Of a DNA stretch of 5,226 bases, positions 380 to 715 are shown one piece after another. The translations under genes and the position numbers were made by a program. The stretch comes from a virus (taxonomy: Duplodnaviria > Heunggongvirae > Uroviricota > Caudoviricetes). The notes under the pieces were generated by a model. The model was not told the DNA's origin and made no database searches. It saw only the letters and a program-made list of their open reading frames with translations. Location: IMG/VR virus record IMGVR_UViG_2529292907_000022; one strand, written 5' to 3'. Each line of letters begins with the position of its first letter. Positions within the stretch are counted from its first letter, which is position 1.

Positions 380-715
380 GTTCGTAGGCCACTCAATATC
401 AGGTGCAGTTGATGTATCAACACGGTTCAGTAACACCCGATACTTTTTCTAGGCTTCCACCACCAGCACGACAAGATGCCGCATACAGTGAACCAGTCAG
501 TCCAGTTTTCAGACAACCAGTGCGTCACCTTTTTGAAGGCGCTTTAAAGCACGTTTTAATCCAGGTCGGCCTGTCCTTGTTCCGCTTAATTTATCTTCAA
601 ATATTTGTTCATATCCTGCACAAACAAGAGCGTTTCGTTGCAGATCTGTATTCTGGTCATTTGTTGATACCCTTACATAGCCAATCAGCACGCTGAATCT
701 CCCGTCCAAAAGCAC
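380..715 (-). pseudogene. Din-family serine recombinase / DNA invertase (Gin/Pin/Cin/Hin-like), disrupted remnant
   Basis: Minus-strand ORF 509-715 encodes (M)[67 protein letters not shown], which matches the N-terminus of Gin/Pin-type invertases including the catalytic-serine motif YVRVSTNDQ. The likely true start is the in-frame GTG at 689-691 (VLIGYVRV = canonical MLIGYVRV), preceded by gggag. The same frame continues [21 protein letters not shown]...: TGA at 509-511 where the conserved Trp of VVWKLDRLGRS is expected, TGA at 497-499 where Arg is expected, TAG at 449-451, and further stops. Recognisable similarity fades by about position 400. The C-terminal helix-turn-helix domain cannot fit before the dinI-like stop at 249. 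Confidence 0.8.

Follow-up and report, generated by a model that had tools for sequence, protein, structure and literature searches.

In the G segment of phage Mu, the invertase gene lies just outside a 26-bp crossover site and reads away from the alternative fibre ends and the assembly genes, and its product, Gin, is an active enzyme of 193 aa with a helix-turn-helix (HTH) domain. Tail-fibre switches of the same kind reside in cryptic prophages of Escherichia coli K-12, as PinE in e14, PinQ in Qin and PinR in Rac, and the pinE gene is intact. A precedent for cross-complementation of Din-family invertases at different loci is found in Salmonella, where the target is a flagellin promoter switch, hin is intact and the invertase of the prophage Fels-2 (Fin) reportedly contributes to inversion of the H segment (Kutsukake et al. 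2006). An invertase acts across prophages in E. coli as well, in that PinQ of Qin inverts the e14 segment (PMC12529663). The most similar system is prophage Phi4 of the E. coli ST131 strain EC958, in which the truncated invertase lacks PF02796 and both orientations of the invertible segment were seen in PacBio reads; Forde et al. 2014 (PMC4134206) concluded that inversion in Phi4 must be trans-catalysed and proposed the invertase of prophage Phi1 for that role. A remnant of this type and a switch dependent on an enzyme in trans are thus already known from Forde et al. 2014, and standard annotation flags the remnant.

The window, by which we mean the whole stretch of 5,226 bases that was analysed, is the end of a lambdoid-type E. 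coli prophage and not of a Mu element, yet it has the layout of the Mu G segment. Where Mu has an active Gin, the window has a remnant of some 79 codons, interrupted by two stops and scrambled in its DRLGRS motif. Unlike the e14 locus it is without a working invertase, and unlike the Salmonella switch it serves tail fibres. Its features are the following.

1 to 249, plus strand: intact dinI-like gene of 82 aa at the prophage end (open reading frame; Pfam DinI, PF06183, E=1.1e-19)
365 to 462, minus strand: 3' fragment of a tail-fibre assembly gene (tfa), its last 29 codons with the natural stop TAA at 367-365 (DNA alignment; Pfam Caudo_TAP)
456 to 462, minus strand: probable illegitimate-recombination joint, in frame, between the 5' part of the invertase and the 3' part of tfa (alignment with K-12 pinE and an intact tfa)
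456 to 691, minus strand: 5' remnant of a Gin/Pin-type serine invertase, about 79 codons (translation; Pfam Resolvase; alignment with gin and pinE)
488 to 505, minus strand: divergent patch over the DRLGRS catalytic motif, reading D-stop-LVHC (alignment with gin, the Phi1 invertase and pinE)
538 to 598, no strand: putative counterpart of the enhancer-bearing part of gin (two Fis-like 15-mers at the gin positions)
746 to 771, no strand: invertase-proximal 26-bp crossover site, TTATCTAAAACC TC GGTTTACAGGAA (half-site comparison)
772 to 1953, plus strand: silent alternative C-terminal part of the tail fibre, with head A, a shared block at 1218-1497 and tail A (open reading frame 973-1953 in frame with the site; tblastn to intact fibres)
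1955 to 2483, plus strand: tail-fibre assembly gene of the silent cassette, frameshifted by an extra T at about 2173-2177 (split open reading frames 1955-2179 and 2106-2483; change of frame in tblastn)
2512 to 3044, minus strand: tail-fibre assembly gene of the expressed cassette, frameshifted by loss of one base at about 2937-2940 (split open reading frames 2898-3044 and 2512-2901; tblastn)
3047 to 3742, minus strand: currently expressed variable C-terminal part of the fibre, with head B, a shared block at 3266-3545 and tail B (open reading frame 3047-4270, which crosses the crossover site)
3743 to 3768, no strand: distal 26-bp crossover site, in reverse complement TTATCGAATACC TC GGTTTACGAGAA (half-site comparison)
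3769 to 5226, minus strand: constant N-terminal part of the side tail fibre gene (stf), running off the window and frameshifted (tblastn in frame -1 for 5226-4672 and in frame -3 for 4621-3743)

Between the two crossover sites, the invertible segment (772-3742, about 3 kb) is thus made up of two mirror-image cassettes, each with a variable fibre C-terminus and an assembly gene. Where the assembly genes converge, 2489-2508 holds a likely terminator, in the form of a perfect G+C-rich hairpin of 8 bp with a T-rich tail after it. The order of dinI, tfa fragment and recombinase fragment is found also in E. coli JX2, where it adjoins the integrase at dusA.

The likeness to EC958 Phi4 is close. Positions 311-766 of the window, which comprise the invertase stump, three stop codons, the tfa fragment and an outer crossover half-site, are 100% identical in EC958, where the stump is annotated as EC958_1582; the four crossover half-sites are shared as well, and the conclusion is the same, namely that there is no HTH domain and that inversion falls to another enzyme. 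The two loci differ in that Phi4 has a different head in the place of head A, in that its outer flank is a SAM methyltransferase gene and not dinI, and in that the window adds frameshifts in stf and in both copies of tfa. The fusion of the invertase to the 3' end of tfa and the question of a retained enhancer, both raised here, are not part of the account of Phi4 by Forde et al. 2014 (PMC4134206). Our reading, to which we give a probability of about 0.88, is that 365-691 is a fossil in which a gin-like stump is joined to the end of a tfa gene, and that inversion of the adjacent segment needs the full-length invertase of another prophage.

The invertase-derived sequence ends at about 456, so that some 79 codons are left of the 190-200 in a full gene. 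Alignment to known invertases, which the preliminary description had proposed as a check, gives 179 of 186 identical positions to Mu gin over 691-506 and 30 of 32 to K-12 pinE over 487-456, with nothing past 456. The alignment with pinE reaches 456 and that with intact tfa begins at 462, the two parents sharing 3-4 nt, and the joint reads GTGCTGGTGG followed by TGGAAGCCTAG, also given as GTGCTGGTGG followed by TGGAAGCC; the fusion is in frame. The sequence from 462 to 311 matches, at about 98% identity, the 3' end of an intact tfa of 194 aa (locus L009) and what lies downstream of it; this tfa sits in a prophage with the plain order stf-tfa and without an inversion cassette. In Pfam terms the fragment at 365-462 covers positions 104-130 of the 131 in Caudo_TAP (PF02413), the full-length domain being absent. 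The earlier view of 380-715 as one degenerate invertase thus holds for 691-456 and fails for 380-462, which is derived from tfa; an invertase decaying all the way down to 380 was ruled out, since the DNA alignment ends at 456 and intact tfa matches from 462. Because 462-365 is the end of tfa, the TAG at 451-449, which had been noted correctly as a stop, replaces the Trp of LLEAWKKY in tfa and not a residue of the invertase, and the last stop of the stretch is simply the natural tfa terminator TAA. Judged from these alignments, the main lesion is the truncation with fusion to tfa, and the stops are secondary.

The stump itself is a mosaic, with nt 1-186 gin-like and nt 205-236 pinE-like. On the far side of the fragment, immediately beyond the tfa stop in the minus-strand direction, 318-350 holds a perfect 11-bp stem (CCGCAGCACGT and ACGTGCTGCGG, with an 11-nt loop). 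In most E. coli relatives the similarity to the window starts abruptly at 311, beside this stem. Such an abrupt start indicates a recombination boundary, the outer flanks being different: dinI here and a SAM methyltransferase gene in ST131.

The simplest history would begin with a gin-like invertase gene that was cut after about 79 codons and joined in frame, by illegitimate recombination, to the last 29 codons of a lambda-type tfa. Most likely this would have happened when an invertible fibre cassette (fibre ends, assembly genes, crossover sites and invertase) replaced the end of a stf-tfa module, with one end of the recombination falling within the invertase gene and the other within tfa. 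The TGA in place of Arg would have been acquired later and be found in all carriers, and the TGA in place of Trp, together with the TAG in tfa, would mark one sub-allele, to which the window belongs.

The distribution of the stops may be set against this history. Translation of the minus strand from 715 to 250 gives a normal invertase frame up to KGDALVV and then TGA, as had been described, with TGA at 511-509 in the place of the Trp and TGA at 499-497 in the place of the Arg of VVWKLDRLGRS, and with the TAG further on. The start codon standard in the family is GTG at 691-689, and a GTG upstream, at 715, would add 8 codons. Among 38 aligned loci bearing the remnant, the Arg codon is TGA in all 38, the Trp codon in 18, and the tfa codon is TAG in 17. 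Both TGA stops had been ascribed to single transitions. For Trp this stands, TGG to TGA, because sister alleles (L002, L006 and L007) still have TGG. For Arg the proposed change of CGA to TGA finds no counterpart, the codon being TGA in every remnant and CGC (Mu gin, L005) or CGG (K-12 pinE) in intact relatives. Nor is the Arg stop the only change in the motif, as the GRS of DRLGRS reads VHC and the second Arg is therefore His. The patch 505-488 agrees with gin, the Phi1 invertase or pinE at no more than 10-11 of its 18 nt, against 94-96% in the flanks. These approximately 7 substitutions within 18 nt of the minus strand fall exactly over the DRLGRS motif. The stops are not sequencing errors, because 311-766 is 100% identical in EC958 and in AVS0578, and the remnant is at least 99% identical in about 432 complete E. 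coli genomes.

What is left of the protein includes the catalytic Ser motif near the N-terminus (YVRVSTNDQ), which is intact in the translation. A Pfam search of the read-through translation finds only positions 2-91 of the 145 in the Resolvase profile (PF00239) and is without HTH_7 (PF02796), while the intact relatives, of 193-199 aa, have Resolvase positions 2-144 together with HTH_7. An uninterrupted open reading frame of about 185-200 aa is absent from the window. Nor would there be room for one here: about 440-465 bp lie between the start, at 691 or 715, and the end of dinI at its stop (249), and intact genes take 582-600 bp. The claims that the gene is a pseudogene deprived of its DNA-binding domain and that a full invertase does not fit into the space are thereby borne out. 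To judge from its coding content, the remnant cannot recombine DNA, as it is without the intact arginines of DRLGRS, the oligomerisation helix and the HTH domain. Being a pseudogene with no DNA-binding domain, it leaves the adjacent segment unable to be flipped by its own invertase.

The crossover sites themselves are both intact. They lie in inverted orientation with the same central dinucleotide, TC/GA, and across relatives the outer half-sites are constant while the inner halves move with the heads of the cassettes. All four half-sites are common to the window and EC958 Phi4, in which the inner halves have changed places, and the outer half-site of 746-771 is identical to that of the Phi4 site (Table 3, PMC4134206). 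Both variable fibre ends are open and in frame with the site, across which the reading frame EYLGL is common to them. The silent part A, being open from the crossover site, would therefore fuse in frame to the constant part after inversion.

Typing of the orientation with junction probes of 60-70 nt gave contradictory calls, some of the mosaic cassettes having the same head at both ends, and was dropped in favour of the four half-sites combined with an in-silico flip of the EC958 locus. Since cassettes are mosaic between strains, flipping was tested inside one lineage by way of the inverted EC958 segment. The junction predicted for the flipped EC958 locus has a match of 100% identity over all 400 nt in 152 complete genomes, those of JJ1886, JJ1887 and MNCRE44 among them, against about 237-302 genomes with the EC958 orientation. 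Both orientations are common across ST131-type genomes, and they occur within the set of 432 in which the remnant is at least 99% identical. Isolate 4/0 has the opposite orientation to isolates 4/1-1 and 4/4. A single assembly, GCF_001874485.1, contains both orientations, one in the chromosome (CP015085) and one in an extra record of 32.7 kb (CP015087), and an exact copy of window 441-760 with all three stops precedes each. Differences in orientation between distant strains may stem from homologous exchange of cassettes, and the data from the same assembly and from within the clone are the stronger for that reason. As both orientations occur beside an identical remnant, the switch is not frozen in those strains. 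The preliminary description had left a choice between a frozen switch and one dependent on a helper, and for this allele the sister strains favour the helper.

The extra record, NZ_CP015087.1, is a linear sequence deposited as 'extrachromosomal' and covers the same prophage region as NZ_CP015085.1; it is probably an alternative-allele contig and not a replicon. Another form of rearrangement is hinted at inside the segment. The shared blocks at 1218-1497 and 3266-3545 form a 280-nt inverted repeat of 84% identity within both variable fibre parts, and between strains the fibre tails and assembly genes are inverted or swapped independently of the heads, as in JX2 and L006. This pattern suggests homologous exchange within the 280-nt block alongside the site-specific inversion.

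A full-length invertase of the Gin/Pin family, supplied by another prophage in the same cell, would bind both intact sites, and strand exchange at the central TC/GA would bring the constant part of the fibre into frame with one or the other variable end. A candidate for such an enzyme exists in EC958, where prophage Phi1 has an intact invertase homologue of 199 aa (WP_000905061.1) adjoining near-identical crossover sites. Both the identity of the acting enzyme and the presence of a helper in the window's host are matters that we infer.

Several other readings of the locus need to be weighed. One is that a working invertase is made after all, the stops being due to faulty sequencing or bypassed by recoding. 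The window does contain several indels of one base, at or beside short homopolymer runs, that could be errors; the stops are substitutions, however, and are 100% identical in many independent assemblies made with different technologies. Even with Trp and Arg restored, the frame enters tfa and about 115 residues including the HTH domain are missing, so that the idea is refuted by domain content and its probability is practically nil. The short peptide encoded by the stump, of 60 aa in the window and 64-72 aa in the TGG alleles, could instead have a function of its own, for instance in interfering with other invertases. The open reading frame is present in hundreds of genomes, and the NCBI annotation pipeline PGAP gives 64- or 72-aa 'recombinase family protein' coding sequences in the TGG alleles; against this, the Trp stop shortens the peptide further in a common allele with no sign of counter-selection, the peptide has neither dimerisation helix nor DNA-binding domain, and a scan of 200-2600 found no sigma-70-like site that could serve as a promoter for the stump. 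Such a function is very improbable. More weight attaches to the reading in which the switch is frozen in the window's own genome, no compatible invertase being at hand and the constant part staying joined to variable part B. It agrees with the death of the invertase in cis and with five frameshifts specific to the window, as expected for a locus under no selection, but in EC958-type strains a switch with this remnant allele and these four half-sites does flip, the phage collection searched contains gin-like invertase sequence widely, and full-length invertases are present in prophages of E. coli, for example the P2-like prophages in GDAR2-2 and EC958 Phi1. We regard a frozen switch as unlikely, if well short of negligible.

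The remaining reading accepts that the invertase is dead and holds that its stump is under selection, as a cis Fis enhancer needed by the foreign invertase, the locus being an 'orphan switch' and not a neutral fossil. The first 186 nt of the stump are 96% identical to Mu gin, and two Fis-like 15-mers, GAAGATAAATTAAGC at 598-584 and GTGCTTTAAAGCGCC at 552-538, occur at the positions of the same motifs in gin, +94 and +140. Against the assignment, they are 46 bp apart, whereas the spacing in the Hin enhancer is 48 bp. Three Fis sites have been placed inside the coding sequence of gin, some 550 bp before mom starts, which corresponds to about +117 of gin (PMC3378877). Inversion by Gin, Hin and Cin reportedly requires an enhancer in cis that is bound by Fis and situated in the first part of the invertase gene (Kahmann et al. 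1985; Johnson & Simon 1985). Flipping is also frequent enough to yield alternative assembly contigs. In the Mu and P1 records no annotated enhancer was found. On the other side, there is no dip in variable sites over 538-598 among 23 remnant alleles, in which such sites are evenly spread, and the deletion end-point downstream of the enhancer may be due to chance. Selection on the remnant is a conjecture whose odds we put somewhat below even. In our preferred reading too, the stump may still carry the cis Fis-bound enhancer of Gin-family inversion, and a retained enhancer would explain efficient flipping of an orphan switch.

Of the 5,426 complete genomes of E. coli, 538 have the joint (415-505), as a rule once per genome, as do 35 IMG/VR prophage contigs, and the prophages bearing it are found at several chromosomal sites (ompW/trp, bioA-ybhB and dusA). 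None of the isolated phages in the GenBank collection had the joint, no place covering 80% of the query, and the representative genome of E. coli had no match to it. Among species-representative genomes one record only carried it, at about 95% identity: a 2.5-kb contig (JAEWTL010000008.1) labelled 'MAG: Bacillota bacterium', which is probably mis-binned E. coli prophage DNA. In relatives PGAP annotates the region as 'recombinase family protein, missing C-terminus' followed by 'tail fiber assembly protein, missing N-terminus'. The combination of double-stop remnant, head A and dinI flank was not found together in complete E. coli genomes, IMG/VR contigs or species representatives, and the best match to the whole window among complete E. 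coli genomes was about 95% over 82%. With its exact combination unmatched, flipping is demonstrated for sister loci of the window and not for the window's own.

The fibre module of the window differs from that of its relatives in five single-base indels that are absent from all relatives examined: an extra T at about 2173-2177, the loss of one base at about 2937-2940, the loss of a T at 4621, an extra C at 4693 and the loss of a T at 4738. Together they disrupt the two assembly genes as well as the constant fibre part. Most are at or next to short homopolymer runs, so that either genuine decay or errors of sequencing could account for them. In the former case the module is decaying through five frameshifts and flipping here would be of little consequence at the level of the phage.

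For annotation, the proper label of the region is two pseudogene fragments, a 5' part of an invertase and a 3' part of tfa, in place of a small 'recombinase family protein'. Alternative-orientation contigs deposited as 'extrachromosomal' records are relevant to assemblers and to the scoring of phase variation. Beyond correct annotation the finding has little significance, and its modest interest lies in the stump as a putative cis enhancer. The case is a clear illustration that an invertible segment can survive the loss of its invertase and go on being inverted by a borrowed enzyme. We would add, tentatively and as something possible more than probable, that the stump owes its persistence, in about 10% of E. 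coli genomes, to being a working cis element with the Fis-bound enhancer retained, letting one 'master' invertase of another prophage flip the orphan switch as well as its own. If that were true, the fibre variants, or fibre-derived defence variants, of several prophages would be coupled to a single enzyme.
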